Origin: Escherichia phage vB_EcoP_PW8
DNA: 64,000 nt
Direction: 5' to 3' (one strand)
Sequence record: PQ362703.1
The position numbers and the translations under genes are program-made. Below the pieces are notes generated by a model, which did not search any database, was not told where the DNA came from, and worked only from the letters and a program-made list of their open reading frames with translations. This document shows positions 1-63,904 of the stretch, piece after piece; positions within the stretch are counted from its first letter, which is position 1, and each line of letters begins with the position of its first letter.

Positions 1-257
1 TCCATGAATACAGCAGTCTTACCTGCACCACGGAAGCACAGGTTAACTACATACTGGTTCGGACTAATCATCTTATCCAGCATCTTCAAGTGAACTGGCG
101 GTGTTTTGTTGGATTCACCTTCCTTACCATTAACCAACTTAATGAAGTTGGCAAAGGTAAGAGCAAACTGACTAGGAACATAGTTAGATGAATTTAGGTG
201 GGAGTAATCCACCTGGTCTAGCCATTCATCCAGTTCCTGTTTAATTAACTCAGACAT
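1..257 (-). CDS. 5'-truncated-by-window P-loop protein, probable terminase large subunit (N-terminal ~85 aa only)
   Basis: Minus-strand ORF starting ATG at 257..255 and running off the window start; translation ends ...NLCFRGAGKTAVFM, a Walker A P-loop of the kind seen in terminase ATPase domains; position matches the right-end genes of N4-like genomes. Confidence 0.4.
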   Translation of the reverse strand, partial: MSELIKQELDEWLDQVDYSHLNSSNYVPSQFALTFANFIKLVNGKEGESNKTPPVHLKMLDKMISPNQYVVNLCFRGAGKTAVFM

Positions 258-939
258 CTGTAATGTCCTCATCTGCACGTACTAGTTTAGAACCAGCAAC
301 CTCTTTGGTAGGTACACCACTATTGATTGCATTAATCTGCTGTTCAGCTAATGCAGCAAGTGTTGCCTTGAGGTCGGTCAATCCAGAGTTCTCTCTCAAG
401 TCCAGATTGATATTTGTTACCTGGTCTTTTGGTTTAGCTAAGTGAGTAAGGATAGAGTTAGCTGCATCACATCTTACCTTCTCGCTTGCTGCTGTAGTCA
501 TCAGTTCAACCTGAACGTTGATTGCCTTCTGGTAGTTGTCCTGGTTCACAATCCACACTGGAACCAGACTTTGTTCCATGATGAGGTTAACTAACTTACC
601 TCTGTGATATGCAGATACATAAGCACTAATATCTTTCTCACTGGTTCCTCGTGCTACTAGTTCTGCTTGTCGGTTAGGGAATGTCTTGAAGTAGGCTTCC
701 TTATTTGAGTAGCCCATATGTTTATAAGTCACATACTGAACTGCATTCATGTAGTCCTGCGTCTTAAACTTACCTTCCTTCATTACACCAGAGTAGGAGA
801 TAAAGTTTTCACGGAAGGACTCAGCAACCAGTTGATCTTGGATTATGTTGTTAATTGTGTCTACCAACTCCTGGGTCACACTGTTCTTAAAGTTAGTAGG
901 TAGTGCATTAATAATCTGCTGCTTAGTTAGTTCACTCAT
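250..939 (-). CDS. hypothetical protein upstream of the terminase-like gene (N4 gp69-like position; possibly small terminase subunit)
   Basis: 229-aa ORF from track; stop TGA at 250-252 overlaps the next start by a few nt (operon-like); no diagnostic motif. Confidence 0.5.
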   Translation of the reverse strand: MSELTKQQIINALPTNFKNSVTQELVDTINNIIQDQLVAESFRENFISYSGVMKEGKFKTQDYMNAVQYVTYKHMGYSNKEAYFKTFPNRQAELVARGTSEKDISAYVSAYHRGKLVNLIMEQSLVPVWIVNQDNYQKAINVQVELMTTAASEKVRCDAANSILTHLAKPKDQVTNINLDLRENSGLTDLKATLAALAEQQINAINSGVPTKEVAGSKLVRADEDITDV

Positions 940-1109
940 ACTTATCTCGCTACAAAGTTATGTCTATTAAAGAAGATTCTTTTCTTGGGGTGAGTTACCC
1001 CTTGAATAGACGATACCATACAGTTACACTTTAGTCATGATATAGAAAAGTTCATGATACTGTATAGTATGTAATGTTCCGATGACCTTATTCCCCAAAG
1101 GAGTAACCT

Positions 1110-1400
1110 TTGAGAATCTATATGAGAGTCCACGACTCTAAAGATGAATACAAAGAGCTAGACCACACCAAGGCTGGTATTCTTTCAGGTGATATTATCA
1201 TTACCCATGATGAAGATACTTACCATGAATTAGCTGGGATGATGCTGTTAGATAATCGTCATGGCATTAAGATCCTAGAACCAAGAGAAACTTACTCTTT
1301 AGAAAAACGTCCTTCATCTCTTGTGTTCTTCACAAAATTACCTCATAGTGTCTCCGTCAGTCGAAGCAAAGACAGTGTTCGGATGATGGTGACGATGTGA
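1110..1400 (+). CDS. hypothetical early protein
   Basis: 96-aa ORF, TTG start preceded by GGAG at about -10; followed by intrinsic terminator. Confidence 0.45.
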   Translation: MRIYMRVHDSKDEYKELDHTKAGILSGDIIITHDEDTYHELAGMMLLDNRHGIKILEPRETYSLEKRPSSLVFFTKLPHSVSVSRSKDSVRMMVTM

Positions 1401-1548
1401 TTAGTCATGCCGCCTAGTAGACAGTGGCGGTACTCGTAAAGAGTTAATAACTTCTACAGTCAGGGTTGCCCGGCTCCTTTCCTACCTAGTAGGCTAACGA
1501 TACACATGTATCTAGGGTGATGAACTGACCCGTGATAGAAAACGGTAA

Positions 1549-1584
1549 GGGGTAGAGTCGAGAGGCTCTACCCCATTTCTTTTT
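1549..1584 (+). terminator. rho-independent terminator
   Basis: GGGGTAGAG / CTCTACCCC 9-bp stem followed by ATTTCTTTTT. Confidence 0.6.
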
Positions 1585-1600
1585 CAGGAGGTATGCAATT

Positions 1601-1996
1601 ATGAGCATCTACGCCTTTGACATTGATATTACCGGTGTACTCCGTAAGCAGGAACCCTACTACCTAGGGGAACCTGAGATGGTTAGTAAATTCCTATCTA
1701 AACATGTAGTCTTCCTACCAGACTGTGGGGAATCCCATGAGATAGTTGGTTCATTTTTCTTAAGTAATCTGCAAATTAACACTGAGATACTTACTGAACC
1801 AAAGGTGTATGATCTTACTGAGTACTCTGACTTCGAAACATTCTTCCCAGGAATCAGGTTCTATAAAGTACCTGGTTGGGAAATGATTGTTGAACATAAC
1901 CTATTTAATAAAACGCTTTCCGTTTACTTCAGACACATTCCTAAAGGAAGGAAAATCCATCATGAAATTCATACTAACCGCCCCCAGTTTTGTTAA
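1601..1996 (+). CDS. small early protein, paralog family member 1
   Basis: 131-aa ORF with AGGAGG RBS; carries motif VVFLPDCGESHEIVGSFFL shared with neighbouring ORFs. Confidence 0.55.
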   Translation: MSIYAFDIDITGVLRKQEPYYLGEPEMVSKFLSKHVVFLPDCGESHEIVGSFFLSNLQINTEILTEPKVYDLTEYSDFETFFPGIRFYKVPGWEMIVEHNLFNKTLSVYFRHIPKGRKIHHEIHTNRPQFC

Positions 1997-2276
1997 AGGG
2001 GAATTCTTATACACAACAGACTTTACTTTAGAAGAAGTCATAGATAGCAATCCTCAGCATGTAATCCTGGTTCCTACCTTAGAGGATTATCATGAAGTAA
2101 GGGGTCAGCTCTTCTTATCAGGTAACGACCGTAAAGTTGTATGCATCATTCCTCCATCAGTGTATACCGATAGTAGTGCGTATGACGCTTTGCCTTTCAT
2201 GATGGTATCCGATAACTACCAATGGGATTGTAGGCATGAGGATGAGAAATACCATTACTACTATGTAAGGAAGTAA
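1962..2276 (+). CDS. small early protein, paralog family member 2
   Basis: Track ORF 1887..2276 trimmed to internal ATG (Met26) preceded by AAGGAAGG; motif VILVPTLEDYHEVRGQLFL. Confidence 0.5.
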   Translation: MKFILTAPSFVKGEFLYTTDFTLEEVIDSNPQHVILVPTLEDYHEVRGQLFLSGNDRKVVCIIPPSVYTDSSAYDALPFMMVSDNYQWDCRHEDEKYHYYYVRK

Positions 2277-2279
2277 GAT

Positions 2280-2603
2280 ATGCACCTGTATTGCCTGCTT
2301 AGTTTTGCCACTACATGTTATTTATCCCCATACACGCTGGATAATATTCTGGCAGGTAAGGGCAGTGTTACCACCATCCTGTATGAACCAAGTGAAGAAG
2401 CAGAAGAGTTCATTGGTTCCTGTATCATGTTAGGAATACCTATTACCTTGACTAAGATAAATACTTCCATTGTAGTACCAGAAGGTAAGCTAGTGTATAT
2501 CTTCTCTTCCCAAGAACCCATGGTAGTTACTACCCTAACTGGTAGACTTATTACCCTCTATCCTTCTACCTCATATTTATCTAGCGACGAGTGTGCCCCA
2601 TGA
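2280..2603 (+). CDS. small early protein, divergent paralog 3
   Basis: 107-aa ORF with AAGGAAG RBS; degenerate copy of the motif (TILYEPSEEAEEFIGSCIML). Confidence 0.5.
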   Translation: MHLYCLLSFATTCYLSPYTLDNILAGKGSVTTILYEPSEEAEEFIGSCIMLGIPITLTKINTSIVVPEGKLVYIFSSQEPMVVTTLTGRLITLYPSTSYLSSDECAP

Positions 2604-2938
2604 ATAGAGTACTGTATCTCCATCAGTATAAGGATGAAGTCTCTGTTTACTCCGAGAATATCAATGAAGCTATTGAGTGGTTACTACTACAAGACTGTCA
2701 TATGCTTATGCTATCAGGAGATCTAGCAGATAGTACCCGTGGTTCAATTCTTCTACTTAATAGCCCGGCTAAGTTAACCATCCTTAATCCGGGGGAATTC
2801 ATAAAGATACCTGCTGGTGAATCTGCATTCTTGTTCTTTGAACCAAGGATAGAAGAAGGGTTTGTCGGGCTTACTATAGATAGTAGACCTAATAAAGATT
2901 TTAAAAGAGTAAGGATTATATCCCATGAAACTTACTAA
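2600..2938 (+). CDS. small early protein, divergent paralog 4
   Basis: Track ORF 2591..2938 trimmed to ATG at 2600 (ATGA overlap with previous stop); weak copy of motif. Confidence 0.45.
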   Translation: MNRVLYLHQYKDEVSVYSENINEAIEWLLLQDCHMLMLSGDLADSTRGSILLLNSPAKLTILNPGEFIKIPAGESAFLFFEPRIEEGFVGLTIDSRPNKDFKRVRIISHETY

Positions 2939-3251
2939 GATAGGTTATGCTGGTGGACCTATTTCCACTACCCATACAACCTTACAAGACCTTGTGCCAG
3001 GTAGGCTCACTCCTATTATCCTAGTACCGGACGAACAAACACTGCACGAAGTTAAAGGATTAGCTTTATTACTAAACAAGGAGGTTATCGTAGAAGTCCT
3101 TGAACCAGGAAAAGAACTACCATGGTCCTCCTACATGTACTCCCCCTGGCATGTGAATGCGGATAAGTACACTCTTACCTTTGGTATCACAAATGAACTG
3201 CAAACCCCTCACTTGGTATATGCTTCCTCCTATTTATCTGCTTATAAGTAA
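2925..3251 (+). CDS. small early protein, paralog family member 5
   Basis: 108-aa ORF; motif IILVPDEQTLHEVKGLALL. Confidence 0.5.
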   Translation: MKLTKIGYAGGPISTTHTTLQDLVPGRLTPIILVPDEQTLHEVKGLALLLNKEVIVEVLEPGKELPWSSYMYSPWHVNADKYTLTFGITNELQTPHLVYASSYLSAYK

Positions 3252-3395
3252 GATAGCTATCATATTTTTGCATATGAAAAGTAGCATAGTTATGTATGGC
3301 TATAGTGCTACACCTGGGGCTACACCCTTACACTCAACCATCCCCCCCGGTATGTTGACGGTGTAGCCACTACCCTACCCCACCTTACACGTTAC

Positions 3396-3410
3396 ACATG
3401 CTCCGCATGT
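3396..3410 (+). promoter_or_regulatory. conserved hairpin ACATGC-TCC-GCATGT, candidate virion-RNAP early promoter
   Basis: 6-bp stem, 3-nt loop about 45 nt upstream of the 3453 gene; same GC-TCC-GC core as hairpins at 3885 and 7048. Confidence 0.35.
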
Positions 3411-3452
3411 TATGGACATGTCGTCCTATCATCAACTATTGGAGCTATCATC

Positions 3453-3776
3453 ATGACTACTCAAGCTACTGTACGTATGACTGCAGGAACTTTACTTGGT
3501 ACTGTTAACTCAGCTGCTACTACTGTTGCAGATACATTCAGCACTGCAACTAAAGCAGTAGGTATGCTTAATTCGTATGTTAGTACGATGGCAGAGAAAC
3601 AAGCCATTCGTACTAAATTAGAAATGCATACCTTTGTTAATAAACTGGCTGAAGAAACAGCTATGACCGAGACTCTGCGTAAGAAAAGTATTGAGGAATT
3701 CTGCAAGGATTCAGAGAACGCTCGTATCTATAACGCAGAATATTCAAAAGTAATCGACATCCTGACTAAAGACTAA
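3453..3776 (+). CDS. hypothetical early protein
   Basis: 107-aa ORF, GGAG RBS; flanked by promoter-like hairpin and strong terminator. Confidence 0.6.
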   Translation: MTTQATVRMTAGTLLGTVNSAATTVADTFSTATKAVGMLNSYVSTMAEKQAIRTKLEMHTFVNKLAEETAMTETLRKKSIEEFCKDSENARIYNAEYSKVIDILTKD

Positions 3777-3784
3777 GTCACCTA

Positions 3785-3810
3785 GGAGGCTCTTCGGAGT
3801 CTCCTTTTAT
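3785..3810 (+). terminator. rho-independent terminator (TTCG tetraloop)
   Basis: GGAGGCTC-TTCG-GAGTCTCC followed by TTTTAT. Confidence 0.65.
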
Positions 3811-3884
3811 AAACATTAGATAGATAGTCAAAAGTAGATAACTATCTACTTTAAGTTAACTAACTCGCACTATCTTTAAAAGAA

Positions 3885-3899
3885 AGACGCTCCGCGTCT
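3885..3899 (+). promoter_or_regulatory. conserved hairpin AGACGC-TCC-GCGTCT, candidate virion-RNAP early promoter
   Basis: 6-bp stem, 3-nt TCC loop directly upstream of the 3911/4010 gene. Confidence 0.35.
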
Positions 3900-4009
3900 A
3901 AAGGATAAGAATGAATCCACTTCTTATCGAAATCTTAAGTCTTTTCTTGGGTTTAGTCACCGACGGACAAACCCATAAATCAAAAAATCATTTATCTGGA
4001 GAGTACAAA

Positions 4010-4390
4010 ATGTCTATTCAAAAATTCACTTTCGGTCAATCTAACGCTGCTGCTTCTACTGCTAAAACTGATAAACCAAAAGCTCAGTTATGGCTGAACA
4101 TTGGTTATGTAGCTAATGAAGGCTCTGATGATGAGAAATTCATCTCTCTGCCTACTGGTATTCCACTGGATACTCAGGAACCGCTGCCTACTAATAGCAG
4201 CAATGCTGACTTCCGTGCTATGCGTTGTGCACAGAACGACTTGCTGGAACAGTTAATCGCATATGCTCAGAACCTGGAACCAGGTGAAGAGGGTATCATT
4301 AACCTGCAAGTTCAACTTCGTCGTGTGAAAGCAGAGGCTGCTGACATCCCAGCAGACGAGAATAAATATGCCCGTAAACTGACTTTCTAA
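4010..4390 (+). CDS. hypothetical early protein
   Basis: Track ORF 3911..4390; internal ATG at 4010 (Met34) has GGAGAG RBS, whereas the 3911 start sits on the hairpin; alternative start 3911. Confidence 0.55.
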
Positions 4391-4399
4391 TCAACTACT

Positions 4400-4427
4400 A
4401 GACTCCCTTCGGGGAGTCTTTTATTTT
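4400..4427 (+). terminator. rho-independent terminator (TTCG tetraloop)
   Basis: AGACTCCC-TTCG-GGGAGTCT perfect 8-bp stem followed by TTTTATTTTT. Confidence 0.7.
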
Positions 4428-4530
4428 TAACTATGCGAAAGGCTATTTCTACTTTTTGAGTATCTTTAGACGAAGGGTACTGAAACAGTAACCAGATAGA
4501 TATAGATTTATATTAGAAGAGGAATTAACC

Positions 4531-4719
4531 ATGTTAGATTTCATCACTTTCTGTGTAATCTTCTACTTTCTGGGTTGGAAGTTACGTCATAAATGGTTGC
4601 TTATTGCTAAGCTGCCATTCGTTACTATCGAGTGTCTCATTGCTAGTGTTAAACATAAGAAAGCAATGACTCAGTACTACAAGCAACAAGCAGAAGAGTT
4701 TGCAAAGAGGAACCAGTGA
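4531..4719 (+). CDS. small membrane protein
   Basis: 62-aa ORF, AGAGGA RBS, hydrophobic N-terminal segment. Confidence 0.5.
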   Translation: MLDFITFCVIFYFLGWKLRHKWLLIAKLPFVTIECLIASVKHKKAMTQYYKQQAEEFAKRNQ

Positions 4720-4898
4720 TATTCACTAACATAGAAGATGCCATTGAAGAATGTATCTTTCGTAGGTATCACACTGGTGTACAGAAACGACACTATGGTG
4801 TTGTGCAACTCAATGGTTATCAAATGGTTGTAAGAATTGTACGTAACAATAAACCTTTTAACTTTATGTGGAGTACTAAATCATGCGTAAATCATTAA
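4716..4898 (+). CDS. hypothetical protein
   Basis: 60-aa ORF, GTG start overlapping previous stop, AAGAGG RBS. Confidence 0.4.
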   Translation: MIFTNIEDAIEECIFRRYHTGVQKRHYGVVQLNGYQMVVRIVRNNKPFNFMWSTKSCVNH

Positions 4899-5011
4899 TC
4901 ATGGGAACCAAAGAAGATGTACAGAAGATGAAAGGGCGTCTGGCTGCTAAGAAACAGGCATCTGAACCAGTACGTAAGATTGTTACCTTCAACCATCCAT
5001 GTATCAAATAA
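4883..5011 (+). CDS. possible small basic protein (42 aa)
   Basis: ATG ORF below track cutoff, ends immediately before a strong terminator; not supported beyond ORF geometry. Confidence 0.25.
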   Translation: MRKSLIMGTKEDVQKMKGRLAAKKQASEPVRKIVTFNHPCIK

Positions 5012-7047: not shown

Positions 7048-7062
7048 AGCTGCTCCGCAGCT
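7048..7062 (+). promoter_or_regulatory. conserved hairpin AGCTGC-TCC-GCAGCT, candidate virion-RNAP early promoter (or terminator)
   Basis: 6-bp stem, TCC loop, 34 nt upstream of the RNA polymerase II subunit gene; followed by TTTTGG. Confidence 0.35.
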
Positions 7063-36925: not shown

Positions 36926-37464
36926 CAACAACAACAACCGAACCAGTGGACTTTAATACTCTCCGAAGTCCATTGGTTCAATCTAAACTAAGCGGAAAAG
37001 TTAGCTTTTTCTTGGGTGTAGAACCTGTTGTAGAAAATAAATTATTCCGTAGTGAGTAGTTAATATCGTAAATGATTCTGTTAGAATCCTTTGAGATAGG
37101 AACTCCTATCATAACCTTTCTTAACTTAATCTTTGCCGTATGGCACTGACGCTAGGGGTGGCCCCCCATCCGTCAGGTAGACTATTTTAAGAATGGGTTA
37201 TCTCAGAAAATGTAAAGCAACATTCGGGTTAATCAATGGCCTCTCCCTATAGGGGCCATTTCTGAATCTTAGGCTATATCCCAAAGGTTAGTATCTTTGG
37301 GATAAGGCTTCAGATCCCTTATCAACTAACGCTCATGTTGAGCAAAACATTAACCAATAATGTCGGATAGTTCATTAAGCTATTCATCCAGCATCGAGAT
37401 GTTAGGTCTTACATGCAATATAGGGTATAAAGGGAGGACTCGTCCCCTCCCTCTTATTATAATG

Positions 37465-37534
37465 GTCGGGGTATCACGTAGGCATGTGTAGAAGGTCGCT
37501 ACTTCTCCCGCTGGTTCTAATCCAGCCCCCGACC
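37465..37534 (+). tRNA. tRNA-like element (atypical: short variable loop, weak D stem)
   Basis: 7-bp acceptor GTCGGGG/CCCCGAC, anticodon stem AGAAG/CTTCT with loop GTCGCTA, T arm GCTGG-TTCTAAT-CCAGC. Confidence 0.3.
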
Positions 37535-38322
37535 TACTGACATCCTATCAATGAGTACATTAAGCTAACGTGCGGAGGTTTACACTGTAGCCGGTGTAGG
37601 TGGAGAAGACGGCAGGATAGCTACCTGTGCTTAGTGTACTCTTTGATAGGTTGTGCTATCAAAGTCCAGACGATACCTGAGTGACTTTAAAAACAGATGG
37701 AGCCAGGTGGAATCCCTGGCAATTAATTCAAAGTAGCATTGTACTAATCCATCCCGGAGTTCAAAGGCCAATCATGGAGCAGTGCTACTCTGAATTAGAA
37801 GAATTAAGACGGGTCTGGTGAAGTAGATGGGGTTCGATTCCCTCCGGTAGAGTAATCTACTAGCGTGCTTGGTGCACGAATAAGACTTAATACTGGTGGT
37901 TTGATTCCATCCCCCGTCATCCGAAGTCGCCAGGTACTTATGGCAAACGGGTAGTAACGAACTGGTCATTCGTCAAACGCCCACCTAATTACGAGTCAGC
38001 AAGAACGCCTTCACTTAAACTTAAACAAAAAAGCTTAACGCAATAATTATGTAGGGGTATGTAAGGATTGCGAAGAAGGAGCCAGTTAAAGCCTGGCATG
38101 ACTCACCTAATTGAGGCTGTACTTATGTTCTACAGTAGGTGCACAACACTGGGCTGCTACACCCAGAGGTACAGCCTCACCCTATTACGGGCAATTTAGC
38201 TTAACCTAGTTAAGTAGGTATCATGATTCATTGCTGTAAAATGAGGCTCTTATCAAGCCTCTTCAGACACAGAATCAAGTAAGCTAATGTTGTGGGTATC
38301 TCACAACATGCCCTCCCAATAA

Positions 38323-38403: not shown

Positions 38404-38477
38404 GCCCACTTAGCTTAGACGGGGAAAGCAACCGACTAATAATCGGAAGGTCACTGGTTCAAATCCAGTAGTGGGTA
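38404..38477 (+). tRNA. tRNA gene, apparent anticodon AAU (unusual; assignment uncertain)
   Basis: Acceptor GCCCACT/AGTGGGT, D arm GCTT-AGACGGGGA-AAGC, anticodon stem (A)CCGA/TCGG(A) with loop CTAATAA, T arm ACTGG-TTCAAAT-CCAGT. Confidence 0.5.
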
Positions 38478-38714
38478 CTCATTTAGCAGTAACATAGTCC
38501 TGATTGCATTGCACTCTAAAGACAACACTGGTAAGACAGTCCAGTGGCTGCTATTGTATTGATATTCCCCTCGACGGGAATTTCGCTAGTGAAGGTAACA
38601 CTTAAAAATCCAAACCCACGTCTTACTACTATCGGGCTATCAACCCATGGTCGCTTAACACACTAGTGATAGTAGTTTGACGGACTAGCCTCGTTAGCTG
38701 CGTTAAAGCTACTA

Positions 38715-39773: not shown

Positions 39774-42700
39774 TTAGTTAGTAAGGTTGAGCCACGGGTT
39801 CAAGGTATGGGCACGTAAGCCTTGTCCGAAACCGAAGGAGTAACCAAGGTTACCCTGTGCAGCAATGCTGAAGATGTTGTCCTGAATAGGCAGACCAACA
39901 TTACCAAACATAGTAGGAGTTGGAGCCAGCATAGCCATAGCAGCATGTACTGGGTTATTACGAATCATGGACACTGCAACTTTTGCAGAACGAATCTTAA
40001 AGTTGTAGAACCACATCAGACCAACACTTTCCATATACCCACGGAATCGACCCGGCAGACGGTCGTAGTTAATAAACTCTTCCGTTACACGTCCCAGTGC
40101 TTCTTCACGAGTCTTACCTTTACGCTGAGTCAGTTCATCATAGATGATTGCTTTAGCAATAAAATCAGAGTACTCAACCGTCTTCTGGATACCCTGGAAG
40201 AGAGCAGTATCCTTAGTGATAAGTGCATAACGACCTGCATTACGTACAGACTTAGGTAACTTATCAGCCAGCTTTTCCATGTATTCGTGAAGTTTACCTT
40301 CAGTAATCAGGATGTCATCGCGACCAATACCAGCATCTGCAATTGAAGAGAACTCACCAGCTTCTAACAGAGGCCAGATACTCAAACGCTTATGGCTATC
40401 CGTAATGGACTGAATCTCTGCTTTCAGCTTACGAATCTGGTTCGGGTTAGTAGCTGCACGTAATTCTGCTTCTGCATCTACCTGACGCAGACGAGATTTC
40501 AGATACTGGTTAATCTCAGCAGTTTTCTGTGGAATGCTCTTAGCAATGTTCTTAACAGGTACACCACGAGCAACCATCTGGTAAAGGTTAGCCAGGAAGT
40601 TAACAGCAGGTACAACTACCGACTTAACTACAATCAGGGTCTTAGCTTCTTTAACTAAGTTCTGAACCAGATTCTCACCACCCATTACGTACTTATAAGC
40701 ACGGTTACCGAATACACCCAGCATAGCTTTCTTAAAGGTATCCAGTGTTTCTGGGGACCAACGAGAATTGCCAGACCAAGCATCACCAACAGAAGCTGCA
40801 CGGTAACCCAGTGCATCATTCAGCATGTCACGACGTACCCATAACTCACCCGGACCAAACAGACTTTCTGCTTTCTGACGAGTTTCACTGTTCATCAGCT
40901 TAAGAGCATCAGCAGTCACTGGGTCCAGTTTAGAACCAAGAAGGTTAACGTACTGGGACTTATTAGAGGCAGACATCTTAAGGTCGTTCTCATACATGCT
41001 ATGCAGGTTCTCAATCAGCATATCATTGAAACGTTGTGCCTTAGCTTCTTCCACCTGACGTCCACGCCATACACCAATTGCACGAGCAAGATGGTTCTCA
41101 CCCTCAATATGCTTCAGCATGTTAGGGTCAATGGATTGCTCATAAGCAACTACATTACCATTGGCATCATATACAGGCAGCAGTGGTTCATTACCACGTT
41201 CACCTCGAGCCAGTGCTTTAGTGATACGGTCTACGGAAGGCTTGTCAGTAATACGACCAGCTACCATGGTCCCCATCGTAAAGCCTGTGCCGAGGTCTAC
41301 ACCACCAGCAGTATTACGGACGTTCTGTAGGATACCTTGTGAGAATGGGGCCTGTGCCTGTACCGGTGCAAAGTAGTAACTACGTGCTGGGCCACGGTTA
41401 GCAGAACTACCCTGATAAGTACCCAGGCGTACATAGGATTTCTCAATCAAATCAGCAAACTGACTATCTTCAGCAACAATCAGGTTAACACCTTGTTTAG
41501 TCTCACTAGGGATATACCCTTTGTACTGGTTCAAGGTTGCACGGCTATCAGACTTGGCTTTAGCCATTTCATCCTTACGCTGACCAACCAGGTAAGAGGT
41601 AGCAAAGTCCATGCCTTCAATTTCAGTCTGAGCCAGTGAAGATAGCATCTCACGGTCAGTCTTACCCATTGCTTCCAGTGCATACAGGGTAATCAGTTTA
41701 TCCAGTTGAGCTACATCTACAACAGAACGTGTAGTCTTACGTTCACCCAGCAATCGAGAAATTGCTGTAGCATTACGCAGCAGGTTATTACCGACTGTAC
41801 CGTTAATCATGTACTGAGCCAGTTGCTTAGATTTACGACTAATCAGGGGCCAGTTACGTCCTGCTTGCTTCTGCAAATCTGCTTCCAGCTTATTCACTTC
41901 ACGATCAACAATCTTCTGGTCAGTCAGTAGGTCACGAATTTCACCTAAAGACATAGTGTCACGTAGAACGGCTAGGTCAGTTTTACCCATACCGGTATGC
42001 ATTGCTTTCCACTCTTCATTAGTCAGTCTACGACTGAACTTAGATGCGATAGCGGTAGGCAAATGCTCACGGAACTGCTGACGGTCAGCTTGTACCTGTG
42101 CGCGTACTGCCTTAATCAAATCGTATACAGAAGCATTGCTCTTAGTACGACCAACTATGTCATTAACCAGGTCGTGGAAAGGTTGCCATACCTTACCCTG
42201 GTTCATTGCAGCCATAACACCCTCGGCTACGATTGAACCATTCTTCTCTGTAGCAATAGCAGCTACCAGTTGTGCAGCATGAGCAGCACCTTTAACCAAT
42301 GGGTTCTTGGTATTAGCTGCAACTTCACGAGCACCTTCTAAAGCACGGGTAGACAATACATCAATAGAATCCACCAGATACTGATTAGCACGGTCAATAG
42401 CATTACCGGTAGGGGTAGCAACAGAATCATAGAAGGACTCTGCATTAAGACTGGTCTGCATAATTGTCTGAGCTAATGCATCCATACCTTCCTGTACGTT
42501 GGTAGCTTTAGTGTCACCTGCTACACGAGCATTCAGACTAGCCATTGCAGCAGTACCGATGTTAGTCAGCATTGCGTCAACAGTATTGCCTGATTTCTTA
42601 TCTGCTTTCATAACAGGAATTTCAGCCAGTACCTTACGTACCTCTTCACTTACCATTGCCAGACCAACAAAGGTAGGCAGTAAGGAAGAACGACCTTGTG

Positions 42701-45700
42701 CATCAAACTCAATGTTGTTAGCACCCATGATGGTATCGAACTTCTGCTGTGCATAGTAACGGTCAGCAGGGTTAGTACTATCCGGGTTAGCCATGAATGA
42801 TTCAACAGTCAGGTTCTTAGTAACATGCGTGTAGTATTCCTGTGCACGAGCCATAGCAGCAGGGTTAACAGCAGCCTCGGTAGCCAGTGCAGCAACAATA
42901 TTGGTAAAGAGACGCTGTTCCTGCATATTCATGGTGAAGCCATGAGCCTGAACATCACGGGTTACTTTAGTTGCATTTACTACTGCATCAGAGAACTTAC
43001 CTTTACGAATTACTTGCTGTACTGGTTCTGAACCAATGTAGTCAGTAATCAGCTTATCAAATGTTTTCCCTAACTCTTCCAGACGGGTATTGTCACCATA
43101 TGCCTTGTTATGGAACAGGGTAGTGTCTTTGGCTACAGCAGCAGTAGGAGCCTGTCCACGCATTACTACAGCAGAGTTAAACAGTAAGCCTGAGAACATA
43201 TCATCTGCATTAGCAGGAGCTTTCTTACGTCCAAATACCAGACGTTTGATTGCTTCATATACAGCCTGAACCATAGTTTTAAGTGCAGTGGTTTTCTTCT
43301 GCTTATTAATAAGTTCACGGTTAGTTAAACCCCAAGCCATGTACTCATTCAGAGCAGCAGCTTTAGCCATCGCCGGTTCAATGAAGCCATTAGACAGGTG
43401 TCCATTAATGGTATTCAGTGCATCTGCATATGCTTCACGTACTGCCGGAGATTCATCCTTAACATCCAGAGCACGGAACTGGTTCATCAAATCTTCAATG
43501 TTCTGAACTGCTTCATTAGGAGTACCTTCATAGTGAGCCAGTACAGATTCAAAAGTAGAAGCGTGTACCAATTCATGAACCAGAGTTTCTAAGGAAGGAG
43601 TAACTAAGTAGATGGTCTTATCTTCAAAGTTAGTCCAGCCGTATGCATTACCTGCTTCAGCAGCTTCAATATCTTCTGGTGCTGGACGAGCAATGTTCTT
43701 CTCAATAGCGTAGGCATCCAGTTGAGAAGGCGTACCGTAAACAACCTTATAGTCTTTAGCAGCAAGGGATTTCTGTATCTCTTTCAATACTGCTTGCTGT
43801 TCAGGAGACATCTCTTTAGCTAGTTTAGCAATGGCAGTATTAGACAGCAGACGTACACCAGACTTCAGTACATGACCAACCAATTCTATTGCTGGTACTT
43901 CTTTCACTGGTTCTGCTTTAGCAGCACGTACTGCATCACGACGCTTGTTTAATTCAGCATCAAACAGTTCGTTCAGCTTAGCTACTTGCTGGTCTACGGT
44001 AAGCCCTTCCAGAGAGATTTTACCGTTGTTCACGTAAGGAGCACCTACGGCAGCCATCTGGTCAACAGTGACCTGTACCTGGTCCATTACCTTGTGACGA
44101 ATATCTACACCCAGAGCAATGTTACGCAGATTACGTTCAATCTGTTCAGCACCAACACGTAACAGGTCATCAGTAGCACCCTCACGCTGGTCATATTCCA
44201 GAGCAGACTTAGCAATAGCCTGTTTAGTTTCATCAGACAGTTTACTGAAGTCTACGTTCTTCATGAACTTAGCGAAGGAGTCATAAACATTCTTGATAGG
44301 GTTTCCTTGCCAAGAAGTATATACAGCCTCATTAGCTTTACGACTTGCATCAGTGATGTCATTGATACCAATGTTCATACCGTCAAAGATTTTCAGGGTA
44401 TTCTTCGGAGCACCCTTCATAGTAGAAAGAGTCTGCATCATCATGCCATCACCAGTACCGATGGTCATAAATGGAATACCTGCAACACCTGCCTGTGAAG
44501 GAGCATAGATGCTCATTGGCACACGCATACGATCATCTAAGTTGGTAGCCAATACTTGGTTAGCAACATCAGTATTCTCACTACCAGCAATGTAGAAAGT
44601 CTGTGAACCAGTCTCAATCATTGGAGCCAGTGGAGCTAAGCTATTCTGGATTTCATTCAGTTCTTTCTGTGTTAAGAAATCACCTTTCTTCCATGTTGGG
44701 TCTTTTTCTTTTTCTGCCAGCTTAGCCTGTACTGCTTGTTGAAACATATCCTGCAATACCAGTGATTGAATCTGAGTAGCCTTCTGCAAATTCTCAGTAG
44801 AGTACATCAGACCTTCGCCAACAGTATTTCGGATACCAGTACGCATTGGCTCAACGAATAAGTGAAGCATGTTCTCTTGTAAGTTCTTAAGAGCATTACC
44901 AGATACGGTAAACTTCTGGGGATCTAGCTTACCAGTCAAAGCACCATCTACTTGTTGAATAGATAACTCACCTTTACGCATAACTGGAACATTACCAGTC
45001 AGTGCTTCCATAGAAGTAAGGAAAGTATCCAGCATAGCCTGAGCAGCAGCCTCAGATGCAGCCTCCTTACCAAACATTGCCATAGCTGGGGAAATGCTAG
45101 GGTCAGCAGCACGGGCTTGCAGAACGTCACTGAAGCGTTCGTAGATGGTATCAGTAATTGCACTTACCATTTTGCCTGCAATACCACGAGCACCGGAACC
45201 ATAGATGGTAATGGTCAGTGGGTTTTTAGCTATACCACGTTTCAGGTCCAGAGTACCATCTTCATTCAGATTAAAGTCTTTAATGAACAGGTCCATTAAC
45301 TTCTGGAGATGCTTCATCTGGTTCGTAACAGGAACGTTGTTACGGTAAGTATTACGTAGCTCATTCAGTGCCTGTTGCAGACCATTAGTGGATGCTTCAT
45401 ACAAGTCAACACTATCCTCATGCGAATGATGCTCATTCATAGTCTTGCCAGCTTTACCGAAGAACAAGCCACCCTTAGCAGTATTCTTAATCCAGTCTGG
45501 GGTGAACTTACCACCAGTCATTAATACCATTGCGTTGATTGGACCGTTGGTTACACCATCAGCTTCAACGTACAGCGGAGTATTAAAATTGGTACGGTCA
45601 TCACTGTTAAGATAACGGGCATATTCCATAAGAGCCATGAGAGCTACGAATGATTTATCACTACCCAGAGAAGTCTTCAGAATATCCACTGCATTGGTTG

Positions 45701-48700
45701 GTAAGTGTCCAGACTTATCAAACTCAACCATCATATCAACAGCAGGTTTCAGTTTGCCTTCCAGGGCTTTAGTCAGCTCATCTGACATAACTTCACGAGA
45801 CATTTTATGAACTTTGATGCCTAATGCTTGAGCCAGACCTAACTGGAAGTCAGAGAAGGTTTGGCTGTTTTCATTACTCAAGTCGATAGTAGAGAAGGTT
45901 GGTAGGATTGCTTCACGTACCAGCTTGCTGGACTGTGGATTGTTCTTACCAAGCATCTGCATACGACCTACACGGGTCATGTTGTAACCATAGTGAATAG
46001 GTGTATCCAGTCCATTCTCTTGTTCCTTAATCTGATTGATTACACCAAACAAGGAATCATATGCCATAGAAACGGATAGGTTTTTACCTTCCAGAGATTT
46101 AGCAGTATTCACATTCAGCAATTCTGGGTTAAGAGCACCAGCACCCATCAGTTCAAGAATGTTGTCACGACCCAATGCCTCATAGAAATTAACCATCGGC
46201 ATATGTACACGGAACTCAGTAGCCTGTTCAGCTTTAAGAGCAGCTTTCTGTTCCGGGGTATTGCGGACAGCCGGGTTACGTAACTGAGTTTGAGCCACAG
46301 AAGGAATATCATCACCCAGATACAGTTTCTCTTCTGGTTCTAAAAGGACAGCTTCCTCAATAGCAGTGGGGAATTTATTAATGGCATCATTATCATCCAG
46401 CTTCTCAATGGTATACAGACCAATAGTCTTATTAGATTCTGGGTCAATCTCAGATACATCCAGCATGGACTCTTTAACTTCACCCATCTCAATAAGGGAA
46501 GACAGAATCTCTGTAGCCATTGCCATTGGGATACCCTTGGTATAGCCCAGTGGTGCATTAGGATTACGATTCAAACCCCAATAGGATTCAATCTTTTGAG
46601 CCAGTGAGTTAGTAGCCTCAACCAGAGTCTGAGCATTCTCGAAGTCAGCCAGAATACCTTCTGGTAACAGAGATGCTTCTACTCCAGTAATAGCAGCTAC
46701 GTCTTTCATATCTTTAACAGCAGCATTCTGTGTAGCAGTTAGTCGCCATTGCAAACCAGCAAGTACAGCAGTCTCTAGCAACTGGTCATTGAACTTAAAG
46801 GTGTCACCATCTTTCTCTACGATGTTAAGTAATTTACCACCTACCCAACGGTTAGCCTCAGTTCCTTCTGCAAAACGTTTACCAACATTCTTGTTAGCAA
46901 GGAACTTAGCCAGACGGTCAGACAGTGTAGTCTTCAGAGTTTCACCAAAAGCAAACAAATCCTGGTAACGCTTAATCACATCACCTGTAAGAGCGTTATT
47001 TTCTTTTTGAGTAAATGCTTCAAAACGAGCAGCAGAAGATAATGCTTTCTTAACATCAGTCAAAGGAGATTCAGAACCAATGGTACGGGACTTAGGTTCC
47101 TCTGGCAGAGAAAATGCTTTAAGGAACTGGTTCGGTGTTTTGTCATTGTTATAGACATGGAACACTGCTTCCATTTCTGTTTTAGTTTCAGCTATTTCCT
47201 GAGTGTTATCCTCATTAGTGAGGGTAACATCCTGTTTTTCAGACTGGTTCTCAGGTTCTTTTACAGCCTGTGGTTTAGACTCTTTAATAGTAGGTTCTGT
47301 TTTAACAGCTTCACTAACAGAGGGTTTAGTCTGTACAGTAGGGGTAACTGGTTCCTGTTTTGTAACAGGAGTATCATCAACCTGATTCACTGGTTCATTA
47401 GTCTGTTGGGATTGAGCAGCGTCAAGATTGCCCTGACGGAACTCTTTAACTACCTGAGCAGCAGGTTTGTTCAGACGTGAATCCAATGGGATAACTTTCA
47501 CATGAGAAACATTAAGCTCCGGGTAAGCCGTAGCAAGTGCGTTAGCAATATCAGCTACGGTCTTGGCTTCCAGTCCTACTTGCTGGGCAAACTTAACCGA
47601 CTTGGTATCATACGGATTGACACCGAGGCCAGTACGACTACGTACCCATTCACGCGAGGAAGTAAGAGCCTGATAATGGACAGACTTATTCTTATCCGCA
47701 TTCCCCGAAATCAGATGCTCATTCAACGCTCCGACCTTATTCTGCATGTGCTGGGCGAACTTCATAAAGTCGTCGAGATAAGCGGAAGCCAAATCGAAGT
47801 TACCAGAGTTGTACGCAGAACGAATGCGTTTAGCATGTTGCAACGCAGAGTACTGGCCTTCATTAGAACGAGATTCGTCGGTTTTAATTTGTTTACTAAC
47901 AATGTCTTGAGGACGTAAGCCTAGTTCTTCTGCTTTAGCGTCAAACTCTCGTGCTCCTTGCAATAAAGCAGCAGCAGATTGCAGGGCAGCACGCTGACGA
48001 TTCCCAAGTGTAATCTTACCTTCACTTGCATGTTTCAGAACCATGTTCACTGAATCTGCATCCAGTACTTCTGGAGACATGTCAGCAGCCATGGCAATGC
48101 TGTTTGCCTGAGCTTGATTAGCTTCTTCAGTAGCTTTCAGTTTACCTGCTTCAGCCTGTTCCTGAATCATGGAATGAATAGCACGGAATGCACGGAGTAC
48201 CTTCGGTGTATTCTGAACGTTAGCCATCAGACCGGAGAACTGGTCAACAATATTAGCAGCAGGAGAACCTTGTTCCAGATTAGCTAATGCACCAGGGTCA
48301 CGGTTAATGAAGCTATCCATAGACATGATGTTGTCATACATCTGGATTGCAGCTTCCATTTGAACGTTAGGGTCTTCAGCAGTATTAACCAGGTCAGCCA
48401 TCTTCTGAATAGCTTCAACACGGTTAGTGGAACCAGAAACAGCTTCACGGATTGCTGGACTAGCTTGCTCCAGTTCTACTGGGTCAAACTTCATTACCTG
48501 AGTTAAATCAGCAGCGTACTGGGTAGCAGCAGCTTTCTCTTCTGGAGTAATATCCATTGCATCTACTGCTTCCTGTACAGTTGCTTGTGCTTGTTCTGCT
48601 TGAGCAGTAGCTTCCTGTGCAGCAGCATTAACTGTAGCGTCTGATACAGGAGATGCTTGTTCATTACGCTTAGCAACTTCTTCACCACGCTGAACCAGAA

Positions 48701-50132
48701 TGTTAGTAATAGGGGAGGCAGCTTTTGCTAATACATTACCCGCCAGAGAAGCACCAGCCAGGGTAGTACGTACAGCAGGACCAACGGCAGCACCAGCAGC
48801 CTTAACAGTTGCACCAGGAGCTTGAGCAACTCCAGCAGAACCAAAGCCATACAATGCACCAAGACCAGTTTGTTCACCCACACCTTTAAGCAAATCACGC
48901 TTAGCATCTACATTACCCTGAATTGCCTTGTTCTGTGCAAACTGACTTGTACCAGACTGGATACCTTCTTCCACAGTTTCACGGAGCAAGTTAGAACCAG
49001 CACCAGCCAGAGAACCTACCTTAAGTGGGTTAAGTTCAAACTTAGATACCAGTGGGCCAGTAAGAGCAGCAACCGGAGCAGTTAGGCCAGCAGCAGTGAT
49101 ACCCGTTTCAGATGCAGTCTGACGACGAGCTTCTTCAGGAGTTAAGCCGTCTTTAATGTGTTGTTGGTATACAGGAGATTTAGCAGCCAGTTCACTGAAT
49201 GGCATTTCCATAATTTCATTAGCAGTCTGTTGGTATGCACCACCAGCTTCCATACCACCAATTGCTATAGCAGGTGCAGCAATACGCCCGGTAGCTAATG
49301 CAGTACGTGCAGGACGCGAACCTAACTCAGCAGCTAAGGTAATACCCTTAACAGCTTTATCACCACCTACCATTACTTTACCGAGTGCAGATACACCACG
49401 GATTAATGGACCACCAGTAAACAGAGAACCAACACCTTCAGCAATACCATCTGTAGCAGCCATGTCATTGGATAAGGTGTTAGCAACAGAATCATAAGCA
49501 TCACGACCAATACGAGACAGAGAAGCAACGAGTTCACTTTCCCCTTTAGCAATATCCTGCTTATAGAGTTTCTCATTTTCCTGTGCAGAGATTACATTCT
49601 GGTTCTGTACTACATTACGACGAGCATTCAATGCATCAGACTGTAGGTTGTGTACACCTTTATTCAACCAGTCAAGACTGGAAGCAATGGATGCCCCGGC
49701 ATTATCATTGACCAAGCCTGTGCCAAGAGCAGCAATGCCCCCAAGGGTATTAGCAACACCAAGACCAACACCAGAAAGGGTATCGCCAAATGCTTCTGCG
49801 TTAGTACGTTGTTTAGATAAGTCCTGGCGTACAGCATCAGCAGCATTAGCTCGACTATTAAGAATCTGTAGACCTTGCTCATTACCATACTTATTAATGA
49901 TTTCTAATGGGGAGGCCTGAGTGAAATCTGCCTGAAGTGAACCTGGTTCAAATGCACCAGCACCTAAGTTACCTGCACGACCTGCCTGTAATTGGTAAGC
50001 GTTCTGTGGGGTTAATTGGAAAGGGTTTTGCCCTTGTTCAGCTTGCTTCCGGGAGGTTGCAGTAGAGACATCGACTTGCTTAGCATTAGTGATGCTGTCT
50101 GCGAAACCTGCCAGACGGTCAAATGTTGACAT
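39774..50132 (-). CDS. giant virion-encapsidated RNA polymerase (N4 gp50-like vRNAP)
   Basis: Uninterrupted 3452-aa ORF (track 3458 aa from TTG; ATG at 50132 has AGGAAA RBS); a ~3500-aa virion RNAP is the hallmark of N4-like phages; located at the end of the structural gene block. Confidence 0.85.
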   Translation of the reverse strand: MSTFDRLAGFADSITNAKQVDVSTATSRKQAEQGQNPFQLTPQNAYQLQAGRAGNLGAGAFEPGSLQADFTQASPLEIINKYGNEQGLQILNSRANAADAVRQDLSKQRTNAEAFGDTLSGVGLGVANTLGGIAALGTGLVNDNAGASIASSLDWLNKGVHNLQSDALNARRNVVQNQNVISAQENEKLYKQDIAKGESELVASLSRIGRDAYDSVANTLSNDMAATDGIAEGVGSLFTGGPLIRGVSALGKVMVGGDKAVKGITLAAELGSRPARTALATGRIAAPAIAIGGMEAGGAYQQTANEIMEMPFSELAAKSPVYQQHIKDGLTPEEARRQTASETGITAAGLTAPVAALTGPLVSKFELNPLKVGSLAGAGSNLLRETVEEGIQSGTSQFAQNKAIQGNVDAKRDLLKGVGEQTGLGALYGFGSAGVAQAPGATVKAAGAAVGPAVRTTLAGASLAGNVLAKAASPITNILVQRGEEVAKRNEQASPVSDATVNAAAQEATAQAEQAQATVQEAVDAMDITPEEKAAATQYAADLTQVMKFDPVELEQASPAIREAVSGSTNRVEAIQKMADLVNTAEDPNVQMEAAIQMYDNIMSMDSFINRDPGALANLEQGSPAANIVDQFSGLMANVQNTPKVLRAFRAIHSMIQEQAEAGKLKATEEANQAQANSIAMAADMSPEVLDADSVNMVLKHASEGKITLGNRQRAALQSAAALLQGAREFDAKAEELGLRPQDIVSKQIKTDESRSNEGQYSALQHAKRIRSAYNSGNFDLASAYLDDFMKFAQHMQNKVGALNEHLISGNADKNKSVHYQALTSSREWVRSRTGLGVNPYDTKSVKFAQQVGLEAKTVADIANALATAYPELNVSHVKVIPLDSRLNKPAAQVVKEFRQGNLDAAQSQQTNEPVNQVDDTPVTKQEPVTPTVQTKPSVSEAVKTEPTIKESKPQAVKEPENQSEKQDVTLTNEDNTQEIAETKTEMEAVFHVYNNDKTPNQFLKAFSLPEEPKSRTIGSESPLTDVKKALSSAARFEAFTQKENNALTGDVIKRYQDLFAFGETLKTTLSDRLAKFLANKNVGKRFAEGTEANRWVGGKLLNIVEKDGDTFKFNDQLLETAVLAGLQWRLTATQNAAVKDMKDVAAITGVEASLLPEGILADFENAQTLVEATNSLAQKIESYWGLNRNPNAPLGYTKGIPMAMATEILSSLIEMGEVKESMLDVSEIDPESNKTIGLYTIEKLDDNDAINKFPTAIEEAVLLEPEEKLYLGDDIPSVAQTQLRNPAVRNTPEQKAALKAEQATEFRVHMPMVNFYEALGRDNILELMGAGALNPELLNVNTAKSLEGKNLSVSMAYDSLFGVINQIKEQENGLDTPIHYGYNMTRVGRMQMLGKNNPQSSKLVREAILPTFSTIDLSNENSQTFSDFQLGLAQALGIKVHKMSREVMSDELTKALEGKLKPAVDMMVEFDKSGHLPTNAVDILKTSLGSDKSFVALMALMEYARYLNSDDRTNFNTPLYVEADGVTNGPINAMVLMTGGKFTPDWIKNTAKGGLFFGKAGKTMNEHHSHEDSVDLYEASTNGLQQALNELRNTYRNNVPVTNQMKHLQKLMDLFIKDFNLNEDGTLDLKRGIAKNPLTITIYGSGARGIAGKMVSAITDTIYERFSDVLQARAADPSISPAMAMFGKEAASEAAAQAMLDTFLTSMEALTGNVPVMRKGELSIQQVDGALTGKLDPQKFTVSGNALKNLQENMLHLFVEPMRTGIRNTVGEGLMYSTENLQKATQIQSLVLQDMFQQAVQAKLAEKEKDPTWKKGDFLTQKELNEIQNSLAPLAPMIETGSQTFYIAGSENTDVANQVLATNLDDRMRVPMSIYAPSQAGVAGIPFMTIGTGDGMMMQTLSTMKGAPKNTLKIFDGMNIGINDITDASRKANEAVYTSWQGNPIKNVYDSFAKFMKNVDFSKLSDETKQAIAKSALEYDQREGATDDLLRVGAEQIERNLRNIALGVDIRHKVMDQVQVTVDQMAAVGAPYVNNGKISLEGLTVDQQVAKLNELFDAELNKRRDAVRAAKAEPVKEVPAIELVGHVLKSGVRLLSNTAIAKLAKEMSPEQQAVLKEIQKSLAAKDYKVVYGTPSQLDAYAIEKNIARPAPEDIEAAEAGNAYGWTNFEDKTIYLVTPSLETLVHELVHASTFESVLAHYEGTPNEAVQNIEDLMNQFRALDVKDESPAVREAYADALNTINGHLSNGFIEPAMAKAAALNEYMAWGLTNRELINKQKKTTALKTMVQAVYEAIKRLVFGRKKAPANADDMFSGLLFNSAVVMRGQAPTAAVAKDTTLFHNKAYGDNTRLEELGKTFDKLITDYIGSEPVQQVIRKGKFSDAVVNATKVTRDVQAHGFTMNMQEQRLFTNIVAALATEAAVNPAAMARAQEYYTHVTKNLTVESFMANPDSTNPADRYYAQQKFDTIMGANNIEFDAQGRSSLLPTFVGLAMVSEEVRKVLAEIPVMKADKKSGNTVDAMLTNIGTAAMASLNARVAGDTKATNVQEGMDALAQTIMQTSLNAESFYDSVATPTGNAIDRANQYLVDSIDVLSTRALEGAREVAANTKNPLVKGAAHAAQLVAAIATEKNGSIVAEGVMAAMNQGKVWQPFHDLVNDIVGRTKSNASVYDLIKAVRAQVQADRQQFREHLPTAIASKFSRRLTNEEWKAMHTGMGKTDLAVLRDTMSLGEIRDLLTDQKIVDREVNKLEADLQKQAGRNWPLISRKSKQLAQYMINGTVGNNLLRNATAISRLLGERKTTRSVVDVAQLDKLITLYALEAMGKTDREMLSSLAQTEIEGMDFATSYLVGQRKDEMAKAKSDSRATLNQYKGYIPSETKQGVNLIVAEDSQFADLIEKSYVRLGTYQGSSANRGPARSYYFAPVQAQAPFSQGILQNVRNTAGGVDLGTGFTMGTMVAGRITDKPSVDRITKALARGERGNEPLLPVYDANGNVVAYEQSIDPNMLKHIEGENHLARAIGVWRGRQVEEAKAQRFNDMLIENLHSMYENDLKMSASNKSQYVNLLGSKLDPVTADALKLMNSETRQKAESLFGPGELWVRRDMLNDALGYRAASVGDAWSGNSRWSPETLDTFKKAMLGVFGNRAYKYVMGGENLVQNLVKEAKTLIVVKSVVVPAVNFLANLYQMVARGVPVKNIAKSIPQKTAEINQYLKSRLRQVDAEAELRAATNPNQIRKLKAEIQSITDSHKRLSIWPLLEAGEFSSIADAGIGRDDILITEGKLHEYMEKLADKLPKSVRNAGRYALITKDTALFQGIQKTVEYSDFIAKAIIYDELTQRKGKTREEALGRVTEEFINYDRLPGRFRGYMESVGLMWFYNFKIRSAKVAVSMIRNNPVHAAMAMLAPTPTMFGNVGLPIQDNIFSIAAQGNLGYSFGFGQGLRAHTLNPWLNLTN

Positions 50133-50196
50133 AGCATGTTTCCTGTTCAAACTTATATCGTATATAGGAAGCTTACTCTACAGTAAGCCAGTGTAA

Positions 50197-62026: not shown

Positions 62027-62028
62027 AG

Positions 62029-63160: not shown

Positions 63161-63401
63161 CCTTTGGACGGAATCGTATCAATCTGCCTATGATGTTTAA
63201 GGCAAACAGTGCGATTGCAATATTGGAACCCTGAGGAATATCTTCCAGGATATGTCGAGGTAGTCCTGTCAGCATTGGTTGGATAATATCTATGGCAGAA
63301 AACAAAATTAAACCTAATGTACTAATCTGAACGGATGCCCACTTCCAGCATCTTTTCCAGTTAGGTACTAGCTCTACCTTTCTTTTTAACCTGCGAACCA
63401 T
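63141..63401 (-). CDS. holin (two TM segments; possibly pinholin given SAR endolysin)
   Basis: Track ORF 63141..63467 trimmed to Met23 with GGGAG RBS; two hydrophobic helices; immediately upstream of endolysin. Confidence 0.5.
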   Translation of the reverse strand: MVRRLKRKVELVPNWKRCWKWASVQISTLGLILFSAIDIIQPMLTGLPRHILEDIPQGSNIAIALFALNIIGRLIRFRPKDDSHES

Positions 63402-63715: not shown

Positions 63716-63878
63716 AATATTACCGTAGTTGTATAGTTAGAATCCCCAATAGAGTCATATCATAAGATGACTCTTAGATAATACTTAGTATGATGAAGTA
63801 CATCCAGACATAGTGTCTAGTATCAACACATGGTAGATAGTATTCAGTTTGATATGTTTAATATCAGGACAAGTAATC

Positions 63879-63904
63879 ACCCTAACATCAATATCTGTTA
63901 GGGT
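63879..63904. promoter_or_regulatory. perfect 9-bp inverted repeat in the region upstream of the lysis/structural operon
   Basis: ACCCTAACA-TCAATATC-TGTTAGGGT; not followed by a U-run on either strand. Confidence 0.3.

Follow-up and report, generated by a model that had tools for sequence, protein, structure and literature searches.

Predicted virion ends and collapsed terminal repeat in the permuted assembly of the N4-related coliphage vB_EcoP_PW8

Gene content and layout of the window

The window analyzed in this study is a stretch of 64,000 nucleotides from Escherichia phage vB_EcoP_PW8 (sequence record PQ362703.1). Judged by its sequence, the source phage is a Gamaleyavirus, a G7C-like and N4-related coliphage of the Schitoviridae (Enquatrovirinae). 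All parts of the window that were compared showed 88-96% nucleotide identity to Gamaleyavirus genomes, which included those of G7C, St11Ph5, IME11, ECBP1, pSb-1, Mimir124, the UE-S5a group, and others. An N4-like genome was also indicated by the N4 gene order and by a giant gene of virion RNA polymerase size, an open reading frame of 3,458 amino acids at 39774-50150 on the minus strand. Portal and lysis genes were annotated in the relatives in the region matching 61000-64000 of the window. By arithmetic from the coordinates of St11Ph5, approximately 7.2 kb, running from the tail-fibre genes to most of the terminase large subunit gene, is absent between the end and the start of the window. A Pfam search with the ten left-most window proteins returned no meaningful match.

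The window opens with the 5' part of the terminase large subunit gene terL (1-257, minus strand), a homolog of N4 gp68 that is cut by the window edge. Positions 3-257 of the minus strand gave a stop-free translation, MSELIKQ...CFRGAGKTAVFM, whose Walker A motif GAGKT is encoded at nt 15-29. The 85-amino-acid fragment matched PHROG 38 (terminase large subunit) with an E-value of 2e-4, and its DNA was 88-90% identical to annotated terminase large subunit genes in many Gamaleyavirus records. Full-length homologs of terL in the relatives had weak matches to Terminase_6C (Pfam accession PF17289). The assignment as a terminase large subunit is thus based on the Walker A motif and on homology, for a gene of which only 85 codons lie inside the window. 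An earlier sequence-only reading had taken this first gene for a terminase and had named a different identity as counting against its proposal; the GAGKT motif, the PHROG 38 match, and the annotation in relatives bear the assignment out. The neighbouring gene on this strand is a full-length homolog of gp69 (250-939, minus strand, 229 amino acids; PHROG 2109, E-value of 2e-105), which is labelled as a predicted small terminase subunit in several records. Late minus-strand genes had been reported at both the far end and the start of the window, and this was confirmed: minus-strand open reading frames fill 39774-63715, and terL and gp69 occupy 1-939.

Genes on the plus strand begin at 1110 with a homolog of gp70 (1110-1400), which has a TTG start and the ribosome binding site AGGAG 6 nt upstream, and which was identified by BLASTP to N4 gp70 (E-value of 8e-24) and by PHROG 7213. 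It is followed at 1601-3251 by five small open reading frames in tandem on the plus strand, all assigned by homology to the gp71 group. The first of these (1601-1996) is homologous to N4 gp71 with a BLASTP E-value of 3e-10. Together with gp70, the five form a weakly paralogous array that belongs to the right end of the physical genome. In N4, G7C, and St11Ph5, gp70, gp71, and the additional copies also point rightward and follow gp69 at the right genome end, and the order terL-gp69-gp70-gp71 is that of the right end in all three phages. Contrary to the earlier premise, the early genes do not start at 1110, because the genes found there are homologs of the gp70 and gp71 right-end genes; genes of the left end begin at 3453.

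The left-end genes start with a homolog of gp1 (3453-3776, plus strand; BLASTP to N4 gp1, E-value of 7e-51 with 66% identity), and the Phage_N4_Gp1 family (Pfam accession PF26891) was found on a protein identical to it. A homolog of gp2 follows at 3911-4390 on the plus strand.

Between gp70 and gp71, a structured non-coding element of approximately 185 nt was identified at 1398-1584 on the plus strand through conservation, covariation, and a terminator scan. Among 58 records, most had an identity of 98.5-100% in the gap at 1401-1600, compared to 76-94% for the flanking genes. An RNAalifold consensus that included the more divergent Moo19, Jgk1, an IMG/VR contig, and N4 contained 35 pairs, 11 of which had compensatory changes. 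Pairing was retained in 94.8% of the cells of the predicted structure versus 37-46% with slid partners, and the observed covariation was equalled by none of 500 shuffles. The element is closed by a strong intrinsic terminator at 1549-1574. A search of positions 1-5000 of the window against Rfam (E<=1) returned no family. Based on its sequence features, the element looks like a structured 3'UTR or a small RNA of the gp70 transcript, and it may offer a genuine starting point for work on phage RNA.

The divergent region at 940-1110 and its stem-loop

The leftward gp69 and the rightward gp70 are separated by a divergent intergenic region at 940-1109, which was delimited by alignments. The 940-1110 gap was 89-96% identical across the Gamaleyaviruses, matching the conservation of the gp69 coding sequence, and was mostly retained in the Moovirus Moo19 and the phage Jgk1. 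The hairpin that had been described in this gap is present at 987-1001 as the stem-loop GGGGTGAGTTACCCC. Such a hairpin alone is within chance expectation: the window contains 39 perfect 5-bp stems in which four or more pairs are G/C, and approximately 0.10 would be expected per 171 bp. The stem-loop is taken as real because it was kept in every relative examined, including those of other genera. Its stem GGGGT/ACCCC is invariant, while the loop varies among GAGTT, GAGAT, GATAT, and GGGAT, with TAGC in N4, where the gap keeps GATTCTTTTCTTGGGGT-TAGC-ACCCCTTGCAGAAACC. With a stem that varies in no relative, there is no covariation, and base pairing and a conserved sequence motif are indistinguishable. 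Relatives of gp69 in IMG/VR, at 58-70% identity, are arranged differently upstream of the gene and hence were unusable for covariation of the hairpin. The folding z-score of the 940-1110 region was -3.75, and part of it came from the inverted repeat ATACAGT/ACTGTAT; since this repeat is absent from the relatives, the z-score was set aside as evidence.

Two functional classes were considered for the stem-loop. It has a short G+C-rich stem, in which a 3-nt loop can be drawn if one G-T pair is allowed, so that a virion RNA polymerase promoter or an intrinsic terminator might be suspected. Either assignment is, however, highly improbable. With respect to the promoter, the loop has five nucleotides, the heptamer GCGGAGC and a G at the correct distance are lacking, and the site is far from the left end, which is predicted 2.3 kb further on. 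A scan of the window also placed no hairpin with the virion RNA polymerase heptamer near 940-1110. With respect to the terminator, neither strand has a T-run 3' of the hairpin (plus strand, TTGAATAG; minus strand, AAGAAAAG), and the site was unlisted by the terminator scan.

Candidate promoter elements of another kind were found next to the stem-loop. By eye and by alignments, sigma-70-like hexamers TTGAAT-N17-TACACT were recognized at 1002-1030 on the plus strand as a candidate rightward promoter of gp70. The corresponding conserved hexamers are TTGAAG-N17-TACACT in the relatives and TTGCAG-N17-TAGACT in N4. Those of the window match at eight of 12 positions, too few to be reported by the scan tool. 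A leftward candidate -10 hexamer, TAAAGT (the reverse complement of 1028-1033), overlaps the rightward -10, and N4 has TTGTAA-N17-TAAAGT on the leftward strand. The late genes of N4 are transcribed leftward by the host RNA polymerase (PMC4496689). No usable account of mapped late promoters in N4, or of the transcription of gp70, was retrieved from the literature.

Taken at the level of sequence, the gp69/terminase block and the gp70 block most likely both have their promoters and leader sequences in the 940-1110 region. The divergent promoters would overlap and would be served by the host polymerase, and the stem-loop at 987-1001 would act as a regulatory element, either upstream of the leftward packaging operon or in its leader RNA, rather than as a DNA end. 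More specific roles were also considered for the stem-loop and the surrounding 170 bp, which are conserved among three genera. They might form a recruitment site for the packaging machinery (gp69, the putative small terminase, whose gene is adjacent), located 2.3 kb upstream of the cut, or an operator that uses the overlapping -10 hexamers to switch transcription from the packaging operon (leftward) to the gp70 unit (rightward) or back. Conservation is the sole support for both roles, and they are considered unlikely.

The predicted terminal repeat at 3310-3711

A direct terminal repeat of 402 bp, present in a single copy, was predicted at 3310-3711 on the plus strand from homology to the mapped or duplicated ends of relatives. 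It is adjoined on its left side by the last 55 bp or so of the unique right arm (3255-3309, plus strand), which are conserved in the relatives and recognizable in N4. Among the records that contain both copies of the repeat, its length is 402 bp in Mimir124, 402 bp in 24-32N, 401 bp in UE-S5a, and 1,160 bp in G7C. The left boundaries of these four repeats align at position 3310/3311 of the window, and the right boundaries of the 401-402-bp repeats align at 3711, so that the predicted boundaries (3310 and 3711) coincide with those of the repeats mapped in relatives. The junction region was 90-96% identical to relatives with mapped ends. Additionally, a search with positions 3000-4500 of the window found 18 distinct phage GenBank records that start or stop within a few bases of the homolog of 3310.

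Several of these ends have been determined from sequencing reads or run-off. In IME11, the commonest read starts are GTGGCTGGGGCTACACCC and AATCTTTGCAGAAATCTTCG, which lie 401 bp apart (PMC3896407); both strings were located in the IME11 record and aligned to positions 3310 and 3711 of the window. For Mimir124, PhageTerm gave a 401-bp repeat whose left end agrees with a Sanger run-off of G7C (PMC11640937). Similarly, PhageTerm gave 401-bp repeats for UE-S5a, S5b, M3, and M6, where they were internal in the raw contigs (PMC11927229). In N4 itself, published repeats are 390-440 bp long (PMC3896407); the N4 record begins with TGGTGGGGCTACACCCCTTACAC, which is homologous to 3312-3335 of the window, and its last 60 bp resemble 3255-3309.

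The terminal hexamer at the predicted left end is ACACCT in the window versus GTGGCT in most relatives. With the ACACCT allele, what is a small inverted repeat in those relatives becomes a direct repeat of GCTACACC. An assembly artefact at this position was ruled out by one independent SRA assembly that carries the same allele, and the hexamer is therefore natural variation.

By homology, the assembly of PW8 is permuted with respect to the virion molecule, with its predicted repeat collapsed, since the window runs unbroken from the right arm through one copy of the repeat into the left arm. No second copy of any segment was found within the window. The same junction was located mid-contig in six independent contigs (71-73 kb) of metagenome or SRA origin, and several related GenBank records were deposited as circular. 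These six contigs were retrieved with gp1; exact-protein look-ups with gp69 and with the open reading frame at 2925-3251 gave no match, and exact 21- and 30-mers spanning the junction were absent from the viral, metagenome, and genome collections searched. The suggestion of a circularly permuted assembly was thus upheld, as genes of the right end read into genes of the left end with only one copy of the repeat between them.

The physical termini, or a collapsed repeat, had been proposed to lie in the 940-1110 gap and to be marked by the 987-1001 hairpin. The gap does divide opposed gene blocks and adjoin the terminase genes, and its hairpin is conserved. The mapped ends of relatives, however, correspond to 3310 and 3711, which are 2.2-2.6 kb further right, and none of them falls in the homolog of 940-1110. 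The same gap is internal in N4, G7C, and St11Ph5, where 1.1-2.6 kb separate it from the right end of each record; no record starts or ends there, compared to 18 at the homolog of 3310, and no virion RNA polymerase promoter adjoins it. A terminus in the gap is accordingly regarded as most improbable. Read-terminus analysis that placed the ends elsewhere had been named as the observation that would speak against the proposal, and homology to the mapped ends of relatives points to such an outcome for PW8.

A position of the left end near 3310 is independently supported by the predicted early promoters. Early transcription of N4 starts at hairpin promoters that the virion RNA polymerase recognizes on the template strand; their determinants are a GC-rich heptamer (GCGGAGC or GCGAAGC) centred at -11, a stem of 5-7 bp, a 3-nt loop, and a template C at +1, and they are restricted to the left end, which is injected first (PMC4496689). 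The motif GCTCCGC occurred three times in the 64-kb window, at 3400, 3889, and 7052, all on the plus strand. Each occurrence lies in a perfect 6-bp stem with a 3-nt TCC loop (GGA on the template), and a G follows at exactly 11 nt from the loop centre. The three sites therefore have the sequence features of N4 virion RNA polymerase early promoters and are predicted as such. The first is ACATGC-TCC-GCATGT at 3396-3410 (plus strand, predicted +1 G at 3414), inside the repeat. The second, AGACGC-TCC-GCGTCT, precedes the gp2 homolog at 3885-3899 (plus strand, predicted +1 G at 3903), and the third, AGCTGC-TCC-GCAGCT, precedes a homolog of gp15, an RNA polymerase subunit, at 7048-7062 (plus strand, predicted +1 G at 7066). 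The N4 promoters P1 (GTTGCTTCGCAAC, position 93) and P2 (GAAGCTCCGCTTC, position 562) are constructed in the same way. As in N4, 90 bp separate the first promoter site of the window from the predicted left end.

Headful packaging, by which virion DNA would lack fixed ends and be truly circularly permuted, is barely credible for this phage. A "circularly permutated genome" is noted in the Bp4 record and many related records were deposited as circular, but fixed ends with 401-bp repeats were obtained from reads in IME11, Mimir124, and the four UE phages, as was a run-off end in G7C. The N4-type arrangement of left-end promoters also requires a defined left end (PMC4496689).

A different possibility retains the left end at approximately 3310 and extends the repeat to a G7C-like length (about 1.1 kb in G7C), with a right boundary at 3777-3876. 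This was suggested by the G7C record, in which 1,160 bp are duplicated at both ends, although the feature is labelled there just as "contains terminal repeat". A boundary beyond approximately 3876 is precluded because the G7C segment 469-1216 is missing from the window, as are the additional G7C genes gp1.1 and gp1.2 located between gp1 and gp2. Against the longer repeat are the 401 bp obtained in seven read-based determinations within the genus, as well as the published range for N4, and it is considered quite unlikely.

The preferred reading is that the virion ends of PW8 lie at approximately 3310-3711, represented by one collapsed repeat of about 400 bp, and that 940-1110 is a divergent control region; based on comparative sequence evidence, the two parts together are very probably correct. 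The virion would contain a linear DNA molecule whose fixed ends carry a short direct repeat of approximately 400 bp. The unique right arm (terL, gp69, gp70, and the gp71 paralogs) would end at 3309, the repeat at 3310-3711 would bear the first hairpin promoter of the virion RNA polymerase and most of gp1, inside which it would end, and the unique left arm would extend from 3712 onward. During assembly, the two copies of the repeat would merge and yield a pseudo-circular sequence with an arbitrary break, here in the terminase gene. PW8 DNA is presumably cleaved at the same sites as that of its relatives.

Implications and comparison with known systems

A permuted assembly with a collapsed repeat is an ordinary and routine outcome, and the biology behind it is already known. 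The terminus proposed previously appears to be off by approximately 2.3 kb. For annotation, comparison, and engineering, the genome should be re-oriented to start at approximately 3310, with a second copy of 3310-3711 added at the right end, and the genes at 1110-3251 should be labelled as right-end members of the gp70/gp71 family instead of early genes. A terminase located beside a strand switch is an unreliable marker of the genome end in N4-like phages, because a rightward gene block separates the terminase genes from the end.

The single copy of the repeat in a contig that continues across the physical ends is likewise seen for collapsed repeats of the T7 type. A difference is that ends of the N4 type are reportedly asymmetric: N4 has a unique left end and a heterogeneous right end with several positions, which are made asymmetrically (Ohmori et al., 1988, summarised in PMC3896407). 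Within the genus, G7C, IME11, Mimir124, and UE-S5a, S5b, M3, and M6 share the same aligned repeat boundaries, with a repeat of 401-402 bp; these phages have the terminal hexamer GTGGCT, whereas the window has ACACCT.

N4 belongs to another genus and its nucleotide similarity to the window is only patchy. The left-end sequence GGGGCTACACCC...TTACAC is common to N4 and the window, except that the first six end bases differ. In both, the first hairpin promoter lies approximately 90 bp from the end and is followed by gp1, within which the repeat ends, and the gp68-gp69-gp70-gp71 block is found at the right end. N4 has gp70, gp71, and gp72, while the window has six genes of the gp70/gp71 type. The N4 promoters P1-P3 share with the window sites at 3396-3410, 3885-3899, and 7048-7062 the heptamer at -11, the inverted repeats, the 3-nt loop, and the template C at +1. 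In contrast, the hairpin at 987-1001 has none of the sequence determinants of P1-P3.

A candidate structured element downstream of gp70

A structured non-coding element was identified on the plus strand between gp70 and gp71 (window 1398-1584), where it showed an identity of 98.5-100% in most of the 58 related records; the genes that flank it shared 76-94% identity among the same records. Its consensus fold included 35 pairs, 11 of which had compensatory changes, with 94.8% of cells paired, and the covariation level of this fold was attained by none of 500 shuffles. The element also contains a conserved CGGCUCCUUU stretch and is closed by a strong terminator at 1549-1574. No match for it was found in a search of Rfam, and it is regarded as a candidate for either a structured 3'UTR or a small RNA.

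Predicted promoters

On the plus strand, hairpin promoters of the N4 virion RNA polymerase type were predicted at three sites, upstream of the gp1 (3396-3410), gp2 (3885-3899), and gp15 (7048-7062) homologs. All three are built of a 6-bp stem, a TCC loop, and a G at +1. The number of such sites in related contigs is three or four. In phage U1G, the terminal repeat is interrupted at about 75-105 by a 29-bp insertion. Within this insertion lies a further hairpin, AGTGTGC-TCT-GCACACT, whose loop is 3 nt long and which may be an additional promoter-like element.

The gap between gp69 and gp70 holds two candidate -10 sequences that overlap by three bases: a rightward TACACT on the plus strand (1025-1030) and a leftward TAAAGT, the reverse complement of ACTTTA, on the minus strand (1028-1033). 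This overlapping arrangement of candidates is retained in Moo19 and Jgk1, and it occurs in similar form in N4.

Variation at the left end and between gp1 and gp2

At the predicted left end, window 3306-3325 reads GCTACACC-TGGG-GCTACACC, a direct repeat, whereas the corresponding sequence in most relatives is an inverted repeat, GGTGTGGC-TGGG-GCTACACC. Five of six bases are thereby changed, exactly spanning the predicted cut site, and the allele of the window is also present in the SRA assembly SRR7532887.

The content between gp1 and gp2 varied widely among relatives. The G7C segment 469-1216, which bears gp1.1 and gp1.2, is missing from the window, where about 100 bp (3777-3876) stand in its place.

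tRNA genes and the gp70/gp71 array

Two tRNA genes were found in the window, both on the plus strand: an Ala tRNA with the anticodon cgc (37464-37535) and an Ile tRNA with the anticodon aat (38404-38478).

Six small ORFs, composed of gp70, gp71, and four more, are arranged in tandem on the plus strand at 1110-3251. Pairwise BLASTP indicated that they are weak mutual paralogs, with E-values down to 3e-7, and they share a core resembling ..DE..HE..G..LL. The copy number of this gp70/gp71 type varies among relatives: six copies are present in the window, compared with two to three in N4, four in G7C, and seven in St11Ph5.
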